DNA from: Pedosphaera sp.
GTDB lineage: Bacteria; Verrucomicrobiota; Verrucomicrobiia; Limisphaerales; Pedosphaeraceae
NCBI GenBank assembly: GCA_028293285.1
Contig: JAQGPC010000268.1
Coordinates: forward strand, 4,024 to 68,023
DNA length: 64,000 nucleotides
Direction of reading: 5' to 3'
The notes below the pieces were generated by a model, which saw nothing but the letters and a program-made list of their open reading frames with translations, was not told the origin of the DNA and did no database searches. This document shows positions 15,157 through 23,223 of this stretch, piece by piece; position 1 is the first letter of the stretch, and each line of letters starts with the position of its first letter. Made by a program: the position numbers and the translations under genes.

Positions 15157-16578
15157 ATGAATCTGCTCAACTTAGATATGAAATTTCCAGGGAACCCATT
15201 TTTTCTGCTTTACCTGCTCTGGTTTTTCACACAATGCGCCAACTGTCCGGCCAAAGAAAAATCAGACGCGCCGAAAATTGGGGATGTTCCACCGCCGCTT
15301 ATTTTAAGGAGTCTGTTACAAGGTCCTCCAACAAATGGGGTAACGTGGGGGAAGTTACATGGGCGCGTAGTAGTGTTGGAATTTTGGGGAGTCAGGTGTG
15401 CTCCTTGTGTCGAAGCGATTCCACACCTAAACGAACTCGTGGCACAATTCGGTAAAAAACCAGTCGTCTTTATTTCGATTTCCAGCGAGAACGAAGAGTA
15501 TGTAAAGGGATTTTTGCATAAGACACCAATCAGCGGATGGATCGCTTCAGATGCCCTGCTTACACCTACGAGTAAAGGATTCTGCATCACGGGCATCCCG
15601 ACAACGGTCATCGTCGATGCAGCAGGCAGAATCGCGGCCATTACTCATCCTTCCCAACTCAAAGTTGAGCATTTAAACGAGGTGCTCGCGGGGAAGCCGT
15701 GTTCTTTGCCACAAAAGAAAAATTCAACTGCTGAAGAACCATCGATTGAACCAAAGCGGGAACCCATTCCAAAAAATATCACAGTCTCCATCAAGGGTCC
15801 ATTTCCAGTGCCCAAAGGAGCGTTCGACATTTGTTATTGGGACAAAGCCCATTGTATCTTCAAGGCTGAGAAGGCGTATTTACGCGATGCTTTAGCAGCT
15901 TTTTACGATATCAATCCCAAAATGATTTCAGAAGAAGGAAAGCTTTCCGAAAAATTATACGATATCAGCGTGGTTGGGCCACCAGACCGCAGACTTGAGA
16001 CGGTCTTTGAATTCGAAGAAGCACTCCGAACGACCTTGGGAATTGTAACGCAAACGAACACGAGCCAACATGAAGTATATGTAGTGAAAGCAGCCCCTCT
16101 CAGCGCCCCGGGACTTAGCGCAACGAAAATAAATGGGGGCGGAGGGCAGGAACCGGGTGGTTTTAAATTAGGGGGGGCTGAAATGAGCGTAGTCTGTAGT
16201 TGTCTCACGTTGGCCCTGAACAAACAGGTCATTGATGAAACTCATATGACGAATCTTTTAAGCGTTCAGATAAACTGGGAGCTTTCGGAAGCGGAGAAAT
16301 TGGGTTTTAGATTGGATAAGCGGATTCAGAAATTTATTGATGATAATCCGGGAGCGATTCTTAATGGTCCACTTCCCAAAGAGCTTAACACGGCAATCAC
16401 GCCCGAAGATTTGGAATTTTTAAAAGCGGAATTGACAAAACCGGAGAATGAACAATTTCAACCTGATCCTGCCAAAGTGATTAAAGCCGCGCGCGAGCAA
16501 TTAGGATTAGAATTGCAGCCTGCCATTCGTTTGCTGCCAGGGCTGGAGGTGCGCAAGGCCAAATCACGCATCGAATAA
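15157..16578 (+). CDS. TlpA-like thioredoxin domain fused to a TIGR03435-like C-terminal domain
   Basis: 'VVVLEFWGVRCAPCVEAIPHLNEL' is a CxxC redoxin motif. The C-terminal end 'AAREQLGLELQP...LEVRKA' resembles the 'EQLGLKLE' signature of the TIGR03435 (Solibacter-type) domain. Confidence 0.65.
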   Translation: MNLLNLDMKFPGNPFFLLYLLWFFTQCANCPAKEKSDAPKIGDVPPPLILRSLLQGPPTNGVTWGKLHGRVVVLEFWGVRCAPCVEAIPHLNELVAQFGKKPVVFISISSENEEYVKGFLHKTPISGWIASDALLTPTSKGFCITGIPTTVIVDAAGRIAAITHPSQLKVEHLNEVLAGKPCSLPQKKNSTAEEPSIEPKREPIPKNITVSIKGPFPVPKGAFDICYWDKAHCIFKAEKAYLRDALAAFYDINPKMISEEGKLSEKLYDISVVGPPDRRLETVFEFEEALRTTLGIVTQTNTSQHEVYVVKAAPLSAPGLSATKINGGGGQEPGGFKLGGAEMSVVCSCLTLALNKQVIDETHMTNLLSVQINWELSEAEKLGFRLDKRIQKFIDDNPGAILNGPLPKELNTAITPEDLEFLKAELTKPENEQFQPDPAKVIKAAREQLGLELQPAIRLLPGLEVRKAKSRIE

Positions 16579-16756: not shown

Positions 16757-17974
16757 ATGAAACCCAGGCATGGCACGGCTCATCCCCCCGGAGCAGCCGG
16801 GGGCGATTCAAAGCCAGAGGCGATCACGAGCGCCAAGGCCCGTCCAAAACGTTTCAGGCGTTTGCGGCGATTGGGGGTTGTGTTGCTTATTCTCGGCGTG
16901 ATTTTAGGAGTTGGGCGCGCCATTCTTCCAACGGTGGTTCGAGACTACGTTAATCGCACGATTGACCGTAATCCGTTGTACACGGGCAGCATTGGGCTGG
17001 TGGAAATCCACCTATTGCGCGGGGCTTATTCCATTCGGGATGTGCGGCTCAACAAGACGACGGGGAATGTTCCGGTTCCGTTGTTTTCGGCGAAGCGGAT
17101 TGATTTCGCGATTCAATGGAATGCCCTCATTCACCGCAGGGTGGTTGCCCGGGTGCTGATGGAACAGCCGGAGTTGAATTTCGTGGATGCTCCCGGTGAA
17201 GGTGAGACGCAAACGGGCGCGGGCGGGCCGTGGCTGAAGATGATCCAGGATTTGTCGCCTTTCACGATTAATAGGGCGGTCATTCGGGATGGCATGGTCC
17301 ACTTCCGCACTTATCAGGAAAAGAAACCGGTGGATGTTTATCTTTCCCAAGTGGAGGGCACCATTGATAATCTCAGCAATATTCAAAGTGAAACCACTCC
17401 GCTCGTGGCGACCGTTGCTGCGACGGCGCTGGTGATGGACCAGGCCAAACTTGAATTCAAGATGACGCTGGATCCGTTCGCCTATCGTCCGACGTTTCAT
17501 TTCGTGCTGCGCATCCTTGGCCTCGATGTTACCAAAATCAACGACCTCGCGCTTACTTATGGCAAGTTCGATTTCAAGCGCGGTTGGTTTGATCTCGTTA
17601 TCGAGACGGATGCCAAGGAAGGTCAATTGACTGGTTATGTGAAACCGCTGTTTCGCGATTTGAAGGTGTTTAGTCTCCAACAAGATATCAAAGAGGACAA
17701 TGTTCTCCAATTCTTCTGGCAGGCGATGGTGGGTGCCGTGACCAAGGTTTTTAAAAACCAACCGCGCGATCAGTTCGGCACGCTGATTCCGTTTAGCAGT
17801 GATGCAAGCGGGAGCACGAGCACAGACATTCTTGCCACGCTGGGTAATCTTTTGCGGAATGCGTTCGTTCGCGCCTACCTGCCGCGCCTGGAGAGCACTC
17901 CGCAAACGTACGAGGGGCTCCAATTCGGCGCACCTGATATAACGGACCCAATATCCCCGGGAGAGTCGCCGTGA
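16757..17974 (+). CDS. DUF748 domain-containing membrane protein
   Basis: An N-terminal TM segment ('LGVVLLILGVILGV') is followed by 'VRDYVNRTIDRNPLYTGSIGLVEIHLLRGAYSIRDVRL', which is typical of DUF748. Confidence 0.7.
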   Translation: MKPRHGTAHPPGAAGGDSKPEAITSAKARPKRFRRLRRLGVVLLILGVILGVGRAILPTVVRDYVNRTIDRNPLYTGSIGLVEIHLLRGAYSIRDVRLNKTTGNVPVPLFSAKRIDFAIQWNALIHRRVVARVLMEQPELNFVDAPGEGETQTGAGGPWLKMIQDLSPFTINRAVIRDGMVHFRTYQEKKPVDVYLSQVEGTIDNLSNIQSETTPLVATVAATALVMDQAKLEFKMTLDPFAYRPTFHFVLRILGLDVTKINDLALTYGKFDFKRGWFDLVIETDAKEGQLTGYVKPLFRDLKVFSLQQDIKEDNVLQFFWQAMVGAVTKVFKNQPRDQFGTLIPFSSDASGSTSTDILATLGNLLRNAFVRAYLPRLESTPQTYEGLQFGAPDITDPISPGESP

Positions 17975-17996: not shown

Positions 17997-18716
17997 ATGA
18001 AAACCATGATGAACCTTGTAAAAACAACTGCTGCGGTGCGTCGGTTGATGCTTGTGATTGGCCTGATTGCCGTTAGCGCGACATTGGGGTGCCATACTAA
18101 AACTCCGCAGAAACAGAATAAGGAATTTTTCACTTCCGGCAGTCGCGAGGCTGACCAGCGTGCCAGCCAGAGAATGGCCAAGGAAGAGCAACTGACCGGC
18201 TCTGGTGAAGGGGCCGGGGAAAAGAATGTTAAAAAAGCGGCCAAATCGGAAGGCTCGGAAAGTGGTTCAACGAATAAGGCCGCGCAGGCGGAGGGCAAGC
18301 TGGCGCTTTTTGATCGTCTCGGTGGTGAGAAGGGCATTACGGCCATTGTGGAGGACGCCACGCCGCGTATTCTGCAAGACCCGCGAGTGAACTTTTCACG
18401 CAGTGGAGTCAAGAGCACCGGGTTTTCGCTTAAGCGCGAGCGCACTGTCACCTGGCAGGCGACACCGGAGAATGTAGCGCAGTTTAAAAAGCATCTGGTC
18501 CAGTTTATTGCTCTGGCATCCGGAGGCCCGGCGCATTACGAGGGCAAAGACATGAAATCGGTGCATGCCGACATGAAGATTTCCAATCCGGAGTTCGATG
18601 CGGCGGTGGGAGATGTCAAGGCTTCGCTCGACAAGCTACAGATTCCGAATACGGAACAGAAGGAATTGCTGGCGATCATCGAAAGCACGCGGCCAGAGAT
18701 TGTGACGGTGCGGTAG
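17997..18716 (+). CDS. group-1 truncated haemoglobin-like protein with lipoprotein signal and low-complexity linker
   Basis: Lipobox 'SATLGC'. The globin part 'LFDRLGGEKGITAIVEDATPRILQDPRVN...FDAAVGDVKASLDKLQIP...ELLAIIES' resembles trHbN/cyanoglobin-type proteins. Confidence 0.75.
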   Translation: MKTMMNLVKTTAAVRRLMLVIGLIAVSATLGCHTKTPQKQNKEFFTSGSREADQRASQRMAKEEQLTGSGEGAGEKNVKKAAKSEGSESGSTNKAAQAEGKLALFDRLGGEKGITAIVEDATPRILQDPRVNFSRSGVKSTGFSLKRERTVTWQATPENVAQFKKHLVQFIALASGGPAHYEGKDMKSVHADMKISNPEFDAAVGDVKASLDKLQIPNTEQKELLAIIESTRPEIVTVR

Positions 18717-19242: not shown

Positions 19243-20508
19243 GTGTCGGGGTCAGTCGTTGCTGTTATAATAATGAATGTTCCCTTTAACGCGCTGGCGG
19301 CAGTTTATCACTTCCTTCGCACCGGGCTGCGCGGTCTGTCAAAGTCAGGCTTTATTGCTCATTTCCCGCCCACTTTATTCAAACAACTTCGCGGCACGAC
19401 CCTTTCCGCATCGCTTCTGGTTTACCTTGCCACTCCCTCACGTTCGCGTGGCGAGAATTCAGTGACCGCCAAATACGAAAATTACAAGGAGGACGGCCAC
19501 CGGATGGAAATCACCACCACCGGCTTGCAGTTTGATACTTCCCTGACCACTTCGCTCCGGGCAAGTGGCGAACTGATTTATGACAGCATCTCCGGCGCCA
19601 CGCCCACCGGCGCGCCACCGCCGCCCGGCAGCGACCAGGTTCCGCTCGCGCGGTTGCGAGATATCCGGCGTGGCGGCTTTCTCGAACTCAGCCAGAGCTG
19701 GGGGCCGCAAACCTTCTCGCCTCAGTTCGCCTACAGCAAGGAAGGTGATTATGTTTCGTATGGCGCAGCGCTGAATTACTCGCTCGACCTCAATCAAAAG
19801 AACACCACGCTCAAACTGGGCCTCGCCAATAACTTTGACGATGTCCTACCCGGCCATTCCTCTTTCCTCAAAAAAGAGCAGGACAAAAATACTTTTGCAG
19901 CAATTGCGGGAATCACCCAACTACTCACCCCGAAAACAATTCTCACGGTCAATGGCAGCGTCAGCTTTGAATCCGGTTATCTTACCGACCCCTATCGTGG
20001 ATTTACCTTCGAGAGCTTTCCGGGCGCTTTATTCCCTGAGCTTCGGCCTCACCATCGCAATGGGCAGAGTCTATATGTGTTGTTGACCCAGTTTATCACG
20101 CCGGTGAATGCGAGTGTCGAGAGCAGTTATCGTTTGCACCATGACAGCTTCGGCATCTGGAGTCATACGCTGGAATTGGATTGGCTTCAGAAAGTCGGTT
20201 CCGACGTCATTTTCCAGCCATTCGTGCGGTATTACCACCAGACCGCCGCTGATTTCTACTTTGTGCAATTGCCCACCGACCCGATAATCGATCCCACCGT
20301 AGTGCCAGCGTTTTATTCGGCTGACTATCGCCTTGCACGTATGGAAACCTGGACGGTCGGCTTGAAGGCGATCATTAAAGTATGCGACCACTTTTCGCTT
20401 AACGGCGCTTATCAACGTTACGAGATGTTAGGCCGGGATGGTGAAACCTCGCCCAGCGCATTTCCCAAGGCAAATATCTTTACCGTGGGAGGCACGTTAT
20501 GGTTCTGA
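19243..20508 (+). CDS. DUF3570 domain-containing protein (predicted outer-membrane beta-barrel)
   Basis: 'YENYKEDGHRMEITTTGLQF...SGELIYDSISGATPTG' and alternating beta-strand-like sequence ending in '...GGTLWF' (C-terminal aromatic). The start is uncertain; an alternative ATG lies at 19273. Confidence 0.75.
   Translation: MSGSVVAVIIMNVPFNALAAVYHFLRTGLRGLSKSGFIAHFPPTLFKQLRGTTLSASLLVYLATPSRSRGENSVTAKYENYKEDGHRMEITTTGLQFDTSLTTSLRASGELIYDSISGATPTGAPPPPGSDQVPLARLRDIRRGGFLELSQSWGPQTFSPQFAYSKEGDYVSYGAALNYSLDLNQKNTTLKLGLANNFDDVLPGHSSFLKKEQDKNTFAAIAGITQLLTPKTILTVNGSVSFESGYLTDPYRGFTFESFPGALFPELRPHHRNGQSLYVLLTQFITPVNASVESSYRLHHDSFGIWSHTLELDWLQKVGSDVIFQPFVRYYHQTAADFYFVQLPTDPIIDPTVVPAFYSADYRLARMETWTVGLKAIIKVCDHFSLNGAYQRYEMLGRDGETSPSAFPKANIFTVGGTLWF
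19582..19602 (+). other. candidate ApbE flavinylation acceptor motif 'DSISGAT' within DUF3570
   Basis: Codons gac-agc-atc-tcc-ggc-gcc-acg encode D-S-I-S-G-A-T. This matches the D-x-x-[ST]-G-A-[ST] FMN-acceptor consensus of NqrC/RnfG-type ApbE substrates. Confidence 0.5.
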
Positions 20509-21485
20509 CGGAAAATCCCGTCATTAACCGCATCCGCGCTTCCCTGCGCGAGCAGACGCGCGCCAACATTCATGAAGTCACCTTTCATGCCATGGGAACT
20601 CCGTGCCGAATGTTGTTTCGCGCCACACCTCAACTTGCCAGCGCATTCAGTAGCGAGGCCCTCTGCTGGGTCGCAGACTTCGAAGCTCGTTATTCACGGT
20701 TCCTGCCTGACAGCCTTATCAGCCGCATCAACGCCGCGGCGGGGCAACACTGGGTCGAAACCGATCCTGAAACCGATCGCTTGTTGGCCCTCTGCCACGA
20801 ACTGAACTTTATTACCCAGGGAGTGTTTGATCCCACTTCGCTGCCGCTCATCCGCCTGTGGGATTGGAAAGCGAACCCGCCGCGAATTCCCGAGGATGAG
20901 GCAATCGCGGCAACCCTGCGCCTGGTGGGTTGGCGTAAACTTCAGCGCGCCCCCGGCAAGGTTTTTCTGCCCGAGCCAGGCATGGCGCTTGATTTCGGCG
21001 GTGTCGGCAAGGAATACGCTGTGGATCAGGTTTCCGCTTTAGCGGTCGCACGCGGCATTGCCGATGTATTGGTGGATTTCGGCGCGGATGTGCGCGTACA
21101 AGGCACACCGCCAGAAGGACGGGGCGCGTGGCACATCGGTTTGCAGGACCCGAAACAGCCCAGTCGTTGCTGGGGCAGCGTGGCGGTCCAAAATGCCGCC
21201 GTCGCCACGTCCGGCGATTACCTCCGCTGTTTCACGGCCAATGGTCGCCGCTATGGGCACATCCTTGATGTGCGCACCGGTCGCCCCGTGGAAAATGGTT
21301 GCCTGGCGGTGAGCATTATTTCGCCGAGTTGCACTCGCGCCGGCATGCTCGCCACCACGGCCTTCGTACTCGGCCCGCAGGCAGGATTGCATTTGATCGA
21401 TTCCACCTTCCAGGCGGAAGGCTGCATCATCACCGAACAGAACAGACTCACCAGCAAAAGATTTTATGATCATTTCGTTTCGTAA
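20499..21485 (+). CDS. apbE: FAD:protein FMN transferase
   Basis: 328-aa ORF. 'FHAMGTPCRMLF', 'FDPTSLPLIRLW', 'LDFGGVGKEYAVD' and 'VATSGDY' are typical of the ApbE family. It overlaps DUF3570 by 10 nt. Confidence 0.9.
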   Translation: MVLTENPVINRIRASLREQTRANIHEVTFHAMGTPCRMLFRATPQLASAFSSEALCWVADFEARYSRFLPDSLISRINAAAGQHWVETDPETDRLLALCHELNFITQGVFDPTSLPLIRLWDWKANPPRIPEDEAIAATLRLVGWRKLQRAPGKVFLPEPGMALDFGGVGKEYAVDQVSALAVARGIADVLVDFGADVRVQGTPPEGRGAWHIGLQDPKQPSRCWGSVAVQNAAVATSGDYLRCFTANGRRYGHILDVRTGRPVENGCLAVSIISPSCTRAGMLATTAFVLGPQAGLHLIDSTFQAEGCIITEQNRLTSKRFYDHFVS

Positions 21486-21987
21486 ATTACGGACTCCTTT
21501 TACGCTGTGCGCGCTTTCTCTGCTCATGGTCACACACTTGTGCGCCGCCGATTTGAAAGTGGGCGACTCTTTTCCCGATCTCGCCGGCTTTAATCTCGAT
21601 GGCAAACTGCCTGAATGGAAAGGCAAGATAGTCCTGGTGGATTTCTGGGCTTCCTGGTGCGGCCCGTGCAAACAGTCTTTTCCGACGATGAACGAACTGC
21701 AAAAACGCTACGGCGAAAAAGGCTTTGTTGTAATCGCGATCAATGTAGATGAAAACAGCAAGGATTATGAAGCTTTCCTCCGCAAAATGCCCGCTGAATT
21801 TGCCGTGCTTCGCGACTCAAAACAAAAGCTTGTGGCTGCCGTGAATGCCGCAACCATGCCCACTTCGTTCCTGTTGGACACGCAGGGCAAAGTCCGCCAT
21901 CTGCATTCGGGCTATAAAGCCAAAACCCGGGAAGAATACATTCATGAAATTGAAGCCCTGTTGATCCAACCCTCTCCCAAGCCATGA
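21466..21987 (+). CDS. TlpA-family thiol:disulfide oxidoreductase
   Basis: Signal peptide, then the 'VLVDFWASWCGPCKQSFP' CxxC redoxin motif. It overlaps apbE by 20 nt. Confidence 0.88.
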   Translation: MIISFRKLRTPFTLCALSLLMVTHLCAADLKVGDSFPDLAGFNLDGKLPEWKGKIVLVDFWASWCGPCKQSFPTMNELQKRYGEKGFVVIAINVDENSKDYEAFLRKMPAEFAVLRDSKQKLVAAVNAATMPTSFLLDTQGKVRHLHSGYKAKTREEYIHEIEALLIQPSPKP

Positions 21988-22208
21988 AAACAGCCATACG
22001 TTTCGCCACCTTCACCGCTTTTGTCCCGCTATTGTTGCTGACCGGTTGCACCAACATCAAACCTTGGGAGCGCGGCACCCTTTCCGACTACACCATGCGC
22101 CAGGAGCGCGACCCGTTAAGCACTGCCATGAGCGAGCATGTTTGGTTCTCGCGGGAAGCCACCACCGGAGGCCGCGGTGTTGGCGGAGGCGGCTGCGGCT
22201 GCAATTAA
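21984..22208 (+). CDS. DUF4266 domain-containing lipoprotein
   Basis: Lipobox 'LLTGC' followed by 'KPWERGTLSDYTMR...EHVWFSREATTGG', as in DUF4266. There is an ATGA start/stop overlap with the TlpA gene. Confidence 0.75.
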   Translation: MKTAIRFATFTAFVPLLLLTGCTNIKPWERGTLSDYTMRQERDPLSTAMSEHVWFSREATTGGRGVGGGGCGCN

Positions 22209-22242: not shown

Positions 22243-23223
22243 ATGAAAACACGTCGCATCCCTTCACTGTTACTGGCTTTATTTCTTCAGGCTGCTCCGT
22301 TGCTCCGCCTGGGTTCATCCACACTTGCCCTGCCCTGCTCCTCCTCAATCGCGGTCGTGTGCCAGTGGGCGATTGCCGCCGTGGCGGTTCTTGGCAGTTG
22401 CCATGCGGTTTCGGGCGCCTCCGCCCTCATCACAGGTTTGATCAAATATAACGGCAACACCGCTGTGGGCGGGCCAACGAACAAGGTCATCGAAGCGTCC
22501 GGAGTTGTTTTTAAATATCGTATCGGCGTGGCCAACACGGGAACCGACTTTGCCCAGGATTTTTGGAATGCCACTCCGTTACCGCCGGGCTTGACCATCA
22601 GCACCGCTGTCGGTGGCAACGGATTTATTACGGGCACGCCCACCGGAGCGTGGTCGAATATTGTCACTATCACGGCCGGCAATATGAATTCCAGCCCTCC
22701 CTCGATCCACACGAACGTCACCCTCGTCATTCTCGCCGGCGTGTCAGCCCCGGCTATTACTGCCCAGCCCGCAAGCGTGAAGGTCGTGCCCTCGAAGAGC
22801 GCCGCGTTTTCAGTCACCGCGACAGGCAATCCATCCCCGGCGTTTCAATGGCGGAAGGATGGAACTAATTTAATTAATAAGACGGGCACTGCTCTGAGCA
22901 TTTCTTCCGTTGGCGCTGCCGATGTGGGGATGTACACAGTGGTGGCCAGCAACAGCCAGGGTTCCATTACCAGCGCCCCACCCGCCTCGCTCAGCTTGGC
23001 AGCCATTCCGAGCATCAGTTCGGCAACGACATCGGGAAATAGTTTTAAACTGACTTTTCTCGCGGAGGCCGGCATTCCGTACACTGTCGAAAGTTCTTCA
23101 GTCGTCTCGTCCAATGTCTGGCAGGTGTTTACCAATATACCGTCGCAAACCGTGAACACGCAGCTTACCGTCTCCGACTCCATCACCGGCAGCACAACCA
23201 AATTTTACCGGGTCCGGGAATAA
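22243..23223 (+). CDS. secreted Ig-like (I-set) domain protein
   Basis: The signal peptide runs from the ATG at 22243 ('MKTRRIPSLLLALFL'). 'PAITAQPASVKV...FSVTATGNPSPAFQWRKDG...ADVGMYTVVASNSQGS' is an Ig I-set-like domain. The C-terminal tail is 'TKFYRVRE'. Confidence 0.7.
   Translation: MKTRRIPSLLLALFLQAAPLLRLGSSTLALPCSSSIAVVCQWAIAAVAVLGSCHAVSGASALITGLIKYNGNTAVGGPTNKVIEASGVVFKYRIGVANTGTDFAQDFWNATPLPPGLTISTAVGGNGFITGTPTGAWSNIVTITAGNMNSSPPSIHTNVTLVILAGVSAPAITAQPASVKVVPSKSAAFSVTATGNPSPAFQWRKDGTNLINKTGTALSISSVGAADVGMYTVVASNSQGSITSAPPASLSLAAIPSISSATTSGNSFKLTFLAEAGIPYTVESSSVVSSNVWQVFTNIPSQTVNTQLTVSDSITGSTTKFYRVRE

Follow-up and report, generated by a model that had tools for sequence, protein, structure and literature searches.

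A predicted DUF3570 outer-membrane barrel with a single candidate flavinylation site, a signal-less ApbE and an Ig-like partner in Pedosphaera sp.

Introduction

Does the motif D-S-I-S-G-A-T, carried by a DUF3570 protein whose gene runs into apbE, mark a place at which flavin is covalently attached to an outer-membrane barrel, and if so, where in the cell would the attachment occur and what might the flavin serve? The locus that raises this question lies in a 64,000-nucleotide (nt) stretch of DNA from Pedosphaera sp. (Verrucomicrobiota; Pedosphaeraceae; assembly GCA_028293285.1, contig JAQGPC010000268.1, positions 4,024 to 68,023 of the forward strand), the whole of which is referred to here as the window. 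Within it, genes for a DUF3570 protein, the flavin mononucleotide (FMN) transferase ApbE, a thioredoxin-like protein and a DUF4266 lipoprotein follow one another as a cassette, and a gene for an immunoglobulin (Ig)-like protein comes next (Table 1).

DUF3570 was named as a new ApbE substrate by Meheust, Huang, Rivera-Lugo, Banfield & Light (2021, eLife 10:e66878; PMC8238504), who reported two conserved [S/T]GA[S/T] motifs in 228 ApbE-associated members of the family. Co-expression of the Chlorobium luteolum protein with its cognate ApbE in Escherichia coli yielded covalent flavin, which was lost only after Ser->Ala replacement in both motifs; the tested barrel carried no signal peptide, received its flavin in the cytoplasm of E. 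coli and came from the insoluble fraction (PMC8238504). The typical published cluster comprises ApbE, DUF3570, a thioredoxin-like protein and DUF4266 (which is small, secreted and has C-x-C at its end), with DsbD in 227 clusters and without it in 316, and its function was called uncertain by its authors (PMC8238504). The same paper never termed DUF3570 an outer-membrane barrel (PMC8238504), and a follow-up paper of 2024 alluded to an outer-membrane substrate in passing only. As for the ApbE motif in general, replacement of its Asp has a minor effect, Gly->Ala roughly halves flavinylation, and a seven-residue tag at a protein terminus suffices; cytoplasmic ApbEs are also known, with cytoplasmic substrates (PMC12052999).

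A preliminary description of the window had treated DUF3570 as uncharacterised and its flavinylation as new, a claim overtaken by the 2021 work (PMC8238504), in which the co-expression with ApbE that the description proposed had been carried out on a relative: the finding is a rediscovery of a published system, and flavinylation of the family adds no new principle. What the window adds is a lineage-specific variant, in which the barrel has one site, an Ig-like partner is strictly associated with it and ApbE lacks a signal peptide. No description of a one-site DUF3570, of an Ig-like partner with the motif, of a signal-less cognate ApbE or of a 16-strand model with the site at a hairpin tip was found in the searchable literature.

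Table 1. Features of the DUF3570 locus, in nt positions of the window
Feature	Position	Strand	Basis or remark
DUF3570 gene, predicted outer-membrane beta-barrel	19273..20508	+	411 aa from ATG; PF12094
Very probable flavinylation site 1, D-S-I-S-G-A-T	19582..19602	+	family-wide conservation; homologue tested (PMC8238504)
Short beta3-beta4 loop and start of beta4, site 2 replaced	19603..19650	+	representatives' alignment
ApbE (FAD:protein FMN transferase)	20499..21485	+	PF02424, E 5e-73
TlpA/ResA-like thioredoxin, exported	21466..21987	+	Redoxin, E 5e-22
DUF4266 lipoprotein, 74 aa	21984..22208	+	PF14086, E 1.9e-20
Ig-like protein, 326 aa	22243..23223	+	Ig_3 and I-set domains
Candidate second flavinylation site, H-A-V-S-G-A-S (residues 54-60 of Ig-like protein)	22402..22422	+	
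aa, amino acids; FAD, flavin adenine dinucleotide; E, expectation value.

A conserved flavin attachment motif in DUF3570

It is highly likely, in our assessment, that the DUF3570 protein forms a 16-strand barrel bearing FMN that the operon's ApbE binds, through a phosphoester, to the last Thr or Ser of the motif, here Thr120. The open reading frame (ORF, 19243..20508) encodes 421 aa from a GTG codon, and the public gene call begins at the ATG at 19273; the motif occupies residues 114-120 in GTG numbering or 104-110 in ATG numbering, and the predicted FMN acceptor Thr120 in the former is Thr110 in the latter. Translation confirmed the motif at the place given in the preliminary description, and the ORF matched PF12094 (DUF3570) with an E value of 4.7e-63 and a score of 213.9 bits, the cut-off being 25. 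The protein ends in LWF. As the preliminary description also stated, apbE is the very next gene, the two sharing 10 nt within 'ATGGTTCTGA'.

Occurrence of the motif alone appears to carry little weight. D..[ST]GA[ST] is expected 0.002 times in one protein of DUF3570's size, and the crude proteome (4651 ORFs) contained 13 matches against 9 expected, among which the DUF3570 match is the sole one near an apbE. At the level of sequence, it is conservation that makes DSISGAT significant. Homologue sets were collected by overall similarity, independently of the motif, and a first set of loci, selected via the motif itself, was excluded from judging its conservation in the barrel. Across 118 homologues sharing 42-52% identity, D104, G108, P111 and G113 (ATG numbering) were invariant, with I106, S107 and A109 conserved in at least 90%. 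Exactly one [ST]GA[ST] was present in 117 of 121 close homologues. The strict motif was found in 80 of the 93 full-length representatives of clusters at 50% identity, and the non-strict representatives, among readable aligned rows, were one residue off in the same column and kept the final Ser or Thr. S-G-A-T at residues 117-120 sits in the family's site-1 alignment column; the homologue alignment proposed in the preliminary description thus found the site kept at a single family column. This comparative evidence agrees with the flavinylation proposed there, as does the experiment on the C. luteolum homologue (PMC8238504), and flavin is very probably attached covalently at DSISGAT.

Loss of the second barrel site

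Judged by alignment, the Pedosphaera-type barrel keeps site 1 only, its site-2 position reading Q-V-P-L-A-R. Two sites about 20 residues apart were present in 97 of 120 proteobacterial (Methylococcales/Chromatiales) homologues, where they flank the beta3-beta4 loop in the form D-x-[VIL]-S-G-A-S-P ... Q-[IV]-L-S-G-A-S-I-R-E. Elsewhere among bacteria of the Planctomycetota-Verrucomicrobiota-Chlamydiota (PVC) group this loop is enlarged, exceeding 100 residues in many, and some of the enlarged loops hold a second site, [DH]-[GA]-V-S-G-A-S. The matching of sites 1 and 2 to the two published sites rests on family alignments and not on the C. luteolum sequence.

The beta3-beta4 loop is hypervariable, with inserts of mostly ~50-200 residues in Lentisphaerota, Kiritimatiellota and other PVC bacteria. 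In readable representatives these inserts are rich in Pro, Ala and Ser with acidic clusters. Degenerate forms of a second motif (A-G-A-T, A-A-A-T) are frequent in the inserts, and in the representative P0194 there are six [ST]GA[ST] motifs.

Predicted structure and position of the site

From 118 sequences, AlphaFold2 produced a confident model (predicted local distance difference test score, pLDDT, 91.9; predicted template modelling score 0.83) with 16 strands and a C-terminal Phe; its top Foldseek matches were PelB and BcsC, both of them outer-membrane barrels. As modelled, the DUF3570 protein is a closed, even-stranded outer-membrane barrel, in agreement with the preliminary description. The motif forms the final residues of strand beta3 (95-111, ATG numbering), followed by a 13-residue loop (112-124) and beta4 (125-143); beta3 and beta4 are the longest strands, and the site therefore lies at the tip of a protruding hairpin. 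Every long loop of the model leads from an odd-numbered strand into the even-numbered one that follows. In even-stranded barrels both termini are normally periplasmic, and the long-loop face that carries the flavin site would then be the cell surface. Along beta3, R106, E110, D114 and T120 point to one face and L105, L111 and Y113 to the other; judged from this alternation only, the side of Thr120 is probably the barrel lumen.

The preliminary description had proposed a topology prediction, on the premise that a motif in an extracellular strand, out of reach of a periplasmic ApbE, would count against flavinylation. The prediction does place the site on the long-loop, normally outer, face, but the premise fails, because a homologue without a signal peptide was modified in the E. 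coli cytoplasm, where no folded barrel was needed, and because the cassette ApbE is likewise without an export signal.

The N-terminus of the DUF3570 protein (19273-19450) is ~20 residues longer than that of its homologues, and two helices are predicted to precede the barrel. Its hydrophobic core is only weak, a canonical A-x-A cleavage site is missing, and downstream there is no other start codon (ATG, GTG or TTG).

An Ig-like partner with a leader motif

The preliminary description held that no other protein of the cassette carries the motif. This is correct for ApbE, the thioredoxin and DUF4266, but not for the Ig-like protein, whose gene begins 34 nt downstream of DUF4266 and whose leader contains H-A-V-S-G-A-S. 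In an AlphaFold2 model of the protein (pLDDT 87), two helices (residues 6-27 and 35-56) and a disordered linker precede three Ig-like domains, and the motif sits in this flexible linker past the second helix (pLDDT <50 for residues 54-59). A fold search of the model against the PDB retrieved generic tandem Ig domains only, and searches with the leader (22243-22422) found no Pfam or NCBIfam model, in NCBIfam even at E values up to 1.

Leaders of this kind, about 60-65 residues long, adjoined DUF3570 cassettes in 60 of the first 80 loci, the gene lying after DUF4266, after DsbD or just upstream of the cassette. Across these ~60 loci the motif column reads [HDQNE]-[AGT]-[VM]-S-[GA]-A-[ST], and it invariably ends in Ser or Thr. 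Searched with a leader profile, this 5.9 Mb genome gave exactly one copy. Strong matches occurred in 26 of 151 genomes sampled from the order, which are exactly the 26 with a full DUF3570, and most lay on the contig and strand of DUF3570, 1-7 kb downstream; in the sample of the phylum, the leader was present in four of six genomes with DUF3570 and in none of 115 without. Among 128 unique PVC loci the leader was found near 68 of 106 one-site barrels and near 0 of 22 two-site barrels, a contrast inflated by relatedness. Even so, two-site barrels without the partner occur within Verrucomicrobia subdivision 3 (loci L065 and L072). In some genomes a barrel gene is followed by as many as three leader-bearing Ig-like genes in tandem (e.g. 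G122:C194:13354-19202).

What the leader motif does can be read in two ways. There is close to an even chance that H-A-V-S-G-A-S is just the region in which an extended signal peptide of two parts, resembling those of autotransporters, is cleaved, and carries no flavin. The motif follows directly on the hydrophobic helix 35-56 in a flexible segment, only small residues (A, G, T or S) precede its Val, like those found at signal peptidase position -1, and in most copies of the leader the canonical Asp is replaced by His. Cleavage, however, needs neither the (near-)invariance of V56, S57 and A59 nor a last residue that is always Ser or Thr, and a leader that is single-copy in the genome and restricted to genomes with DUF3570 is not a general export signal. 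The motif moreover matches the second site that some PVC barrels carry in cis, and its distribution across one-site and two-site barrels, given above, also speaks against a role in cleavage. As a substrate of ApbE the leader motif is plausible on sequence grounds, because replacement of the Asp matters little, Gly->Ala is tolerated with about half of the flavinylation and a seven-residue terminal tag is enough (PMC12052999); the same tolerances count against the signal-peptide explanation.

The alternative to cleavage, which we put forward tentatively and consider doubtful, is that the lost barrel site is supplied in trans by the Ig-like leader. The signal-less ApbE would flavinylate barrel and leader alike in the cytoplasm, and Sec would export them with their FMN. 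The barrel flavin would then lie at the beta3-beta4 hairpin tip on the outer, long-loop face, and a flavin/thiol route would take electrons across the outer membrane to an Ig-like flavoprotein displayed at the surface. If this were true, the Ig-like leader would be a new kind of ApbE substrate, one without a dedicated fold.

An ApbE without an export signal

Homology clearly marks the cassette ApbE as an FMN transferase. Its best match among solved enzymes was 5mgy (E 1e-33, residues 58-313 aligned), with the TSGDY and H-x-LD segments present in the alignment; against the E. coli equivalog model NF007774 it scored 95 bits, the cut-off being 498. Its N-terminus reads M-V-L-T-E-N, with no hydrophobic stretch ahead of the domain: the maximum Kyte-Doolittle value over 10 residues within the first 50 aa was 0.75, compared with 2.81 for a lipoprotein ApbE from another contig of the genome and 2.0-2.5 for those cassette proteins that are exported. 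The apbE start codon lies inside the last codons of the barrel gene (W-F-stop), an arrangement that is conserved. No hydrophobic N-terminal stretch was found in any of 114 unique PVC or 16 Methylococcales ApbE ORFs linked to DUF3570 (130 in total).

The simplest reading would have the barrel precursor modified before export, which fits the flavinylation of the published signal-less barrel in the E. coli cytoplasm. Flavinylation at that stage, if true, would dispense with any need for FAD in the periplasm, and a signal-less ApbE in 130 of 130 loci raises the question whether Sec substrates get flavinylated before translocation.

It is unlikely, in our judgement, that flavinylation is instead periplasmic, with the lipoprotein ApbE paralogue (contig C81, lipobox L-L-I-T-G-C) modifying the unfolded barrel on its way to the beta-barrel assembly machinery and the cassette ApbE otherwise employed. 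The genome does encode this classical lipoprotein ApbE, and the well-studied envelope substrates are all modified in the periplasm (PMC12052999). Yet the enzyme coupled to DUF3570, with a conserved 10-nt overlap, is the signal-less one, in all 130 unique loci and in two phyla; the lipoprotein paralogue lies on another contig beside a Gfo/Idh/MocA-type oxidoreductase with a Tat signal; and the published cognate pair was active in the E. coli cytoplasm (PMC8238504).

Each of the other two ApbE genes of the genome, the lipoprotein on C81 (L005:1387-2415) and a second signal-less form on contig C113 (L006:1387-2379), adjoins a Gfo/Idh/MocA-type oxidoreductase, and these oxidoreductases have a twin-arginine signal and no [ST]GA[ST].

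Weighing flavinylation of the barrel

Two further explanations would deny the barrel motif its flavin. We give very little credence to the first, in which the motif of the one-site lineage is merely structural and unmodified and ApbE acts on the Ig-like leader only. Such a division would suit a lineage in which site 2 has gone from the barrel while a site-2-like motif occurs on the partner, but the full consensus, including the Asp and the acceptor Thr or Ser, is present in 117 of 121 close homologues, and there are loci with a one-site barrel and ApbE but no Ig-like partner. The second, that the DUF3570 motif arose by chance, in line with the nearly expected number of matches in the crude proteome, is refuted by its family-wide conservation in one column, with the adjacency of apbE and the tested homologue beside it, and has a negligible probability.

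Several points nevertheless weigh against flavinylation of this barrel by the cassette ApbE before export. The cassette ApbE has no signal peptide and the motif-bearing proteins near its gene are all exported, which places the enzyme and its mature substrate in different predicted compartments. We know of no ApbE substrate for which modification before export has been demonstrated. The direct flavinylation experiment concerned a two-site homologue, and neither the window protein nor any one-site member; the published family has two sites, and the window DUF3570 lacks a second [ST]GA[ST]. Finally, the ~60 residues at the N-terminus of the barrel make a long export region of atypical kind.

A possible electron route

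We hypothesize a trans-outer-membrane flavin/thiol relay. The translationally coupled operon DUF3570-ApbE-thioredoxin-DUF4266, with the Ig-like gene after it, corresponds to the hybrid thiol/flavin envelope redox system described previously (PMC8238504). In Pedosphaera sp., Thr120 would be modified before the barrel folds, likely in the cytoplasm and ahead of Sec export. Electrons might then pass from cytoplasmic thioredoxin to DsbD, encoded on another contig, and from there to the periplasmic TlpA-like protein, the C-x-C of DUF4266, the barrel FMN and an acceptor at or beyond the outer membrane. Their direction may also be the reverse.

Cassette, distribution and neighbouring genes

Successive genes from DUF3570 to DUF4266 overlap by 10, 20 and 4 nt (all within 19273-22208), and a single operon is therefore indicated. 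Matches to PF12094, PF02424, Redoxin and PF14086 lie well beyond the respective cut-offs. The thioredoxin has a hydrophobic N-terminus and a WCGPC active site (CGPC at nt 21658-21669), and matched the ResA-like model NF002854 with an E value of 3.6e-29, under that model's cut-off. DUF4266 has a lipobox, L-L-L-T-G-C, at 22032-22049 and a Gly-rich tail that ends in C-G-C-N at 22194-22205. The genome as a whole encodes one DUF3570, one DUF4266, three ApbE genes and one DsbD, and has no FMN_bind domain. DsbD is absent from the cassette, the sole DsbD_TM match lying on contig C55; in many related loci DsbD directly follows DUF4266, as recognised by eye from the N-termini of downstream ORFs.

About 60 of 80 related loci in Verrucomicrobiota and Planctomycetota show the gene order DUF3570-ApbE-thioredoxin-DUF4266. 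Distribution of the system is patchy: in the order it was present in 26 of the 151 genomes sampled, and in the phylum in 6 of 121. Metagenome-assembled genomes labelled Pedosphaera parvula Ellin514, a cultivable relative, are among its carriers (loci L016 and L086). Some genomes of the order sample have two to four DUF3570 paralogues, and some barrel genes have no adjacent apbE. Methylococcales loci show the order thioredoxin-DUF4266-DUF3570-(ApbE), the reverse of the PVC arrangement, with an adjacent apbE in only 16 of 52 loci (BLAST with the window ApbE).

Upstream of the cassette, a lipoprotein (17997-18716) and a DUF748 protein (16757-17974) were considered as members and rejected, neither having a homologue in the 80 related loci. 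The lipoprotein, whose lipobox reads A-T-L-G-C, has a lengthy linker of low complexity and, at its C-terminus, a bacterial truncated-globin domain (PF01152, E 2.7e-11); it is unusual for a globin to be anchored in the envelope. Further upstream, 15157-16578 encodes a 473-aa protein with an N-terminal Redoxin/thioredoxin-like domain and a DUF3738 region, a second exported thiol-redox protein 2.7 kb from the cassette. A scan for promoters and terminators returned nothing that exceeded shuffled controls.

Comparison with known systems

The FMN_bind substrates NqrC, RnfG, PplA and NosR share with the DUF3570 protein the motif D-x-x-[ST]-G-A-[ST] and a transferase of the same family. They differ in that a small soluble or anchored domain is modified by an exported ApbE, whereas the substrate in the window is a membrane barrel of unrelated fold.

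Porin-cytochrome conduits of the MtrCAB type consist of a 26-strand outer-membrane barrel with haem as cofactor and a lipoprotein partner. The likeness to the window system lies in the possible working only, as both combine a barrel, a redox cofactor and a lipoprotein into a candidate electron route across the outer membrane. By analogy alone can the two be compared: the window system would use flavin and thiols instead of haem and 16 strands instead of 26, and there is no homology.

The cytoplasmic ApbE of Klebsiella pneumoniae, which serves a soluble fumarate reductase, likewise has no signal peptide (PMC12052999), but its substrate remains in the cytoplasm, whereas the motif-bearing proteins of the window cassette are exported. 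For Flavin-tag (Tong et al. 2021, reviewed in PMC12052999), a short linear motif near a terminus is enough, as is proposed here for the Ig-like leader; that tag is engineered, however, and a natural fold-less ApbE substrate was not found in the searchable literature.

Closest of all are the clusters of Meheust et al. (PMC8238504), which have the same four Pfam families in one operon and a conserved [ST]GA[ST], and in 316 of which, as here, DsbD is not part of the cassette. The window barrel differs in having one site where two conserved sites were reported, and that paper mentions neither the Ig-like partner nor the missing signal peptide of ApbE. Pedosphaerales become a further well-defined lineage for the DUF3570 system, in which a natural one-site barrel offers a simpler substrate for structural and redox studies, and in which the destination of the electrons is hinted at by a partner of surface type that strictly co-occurs with the barrel and whose leader resembles a flavin site.

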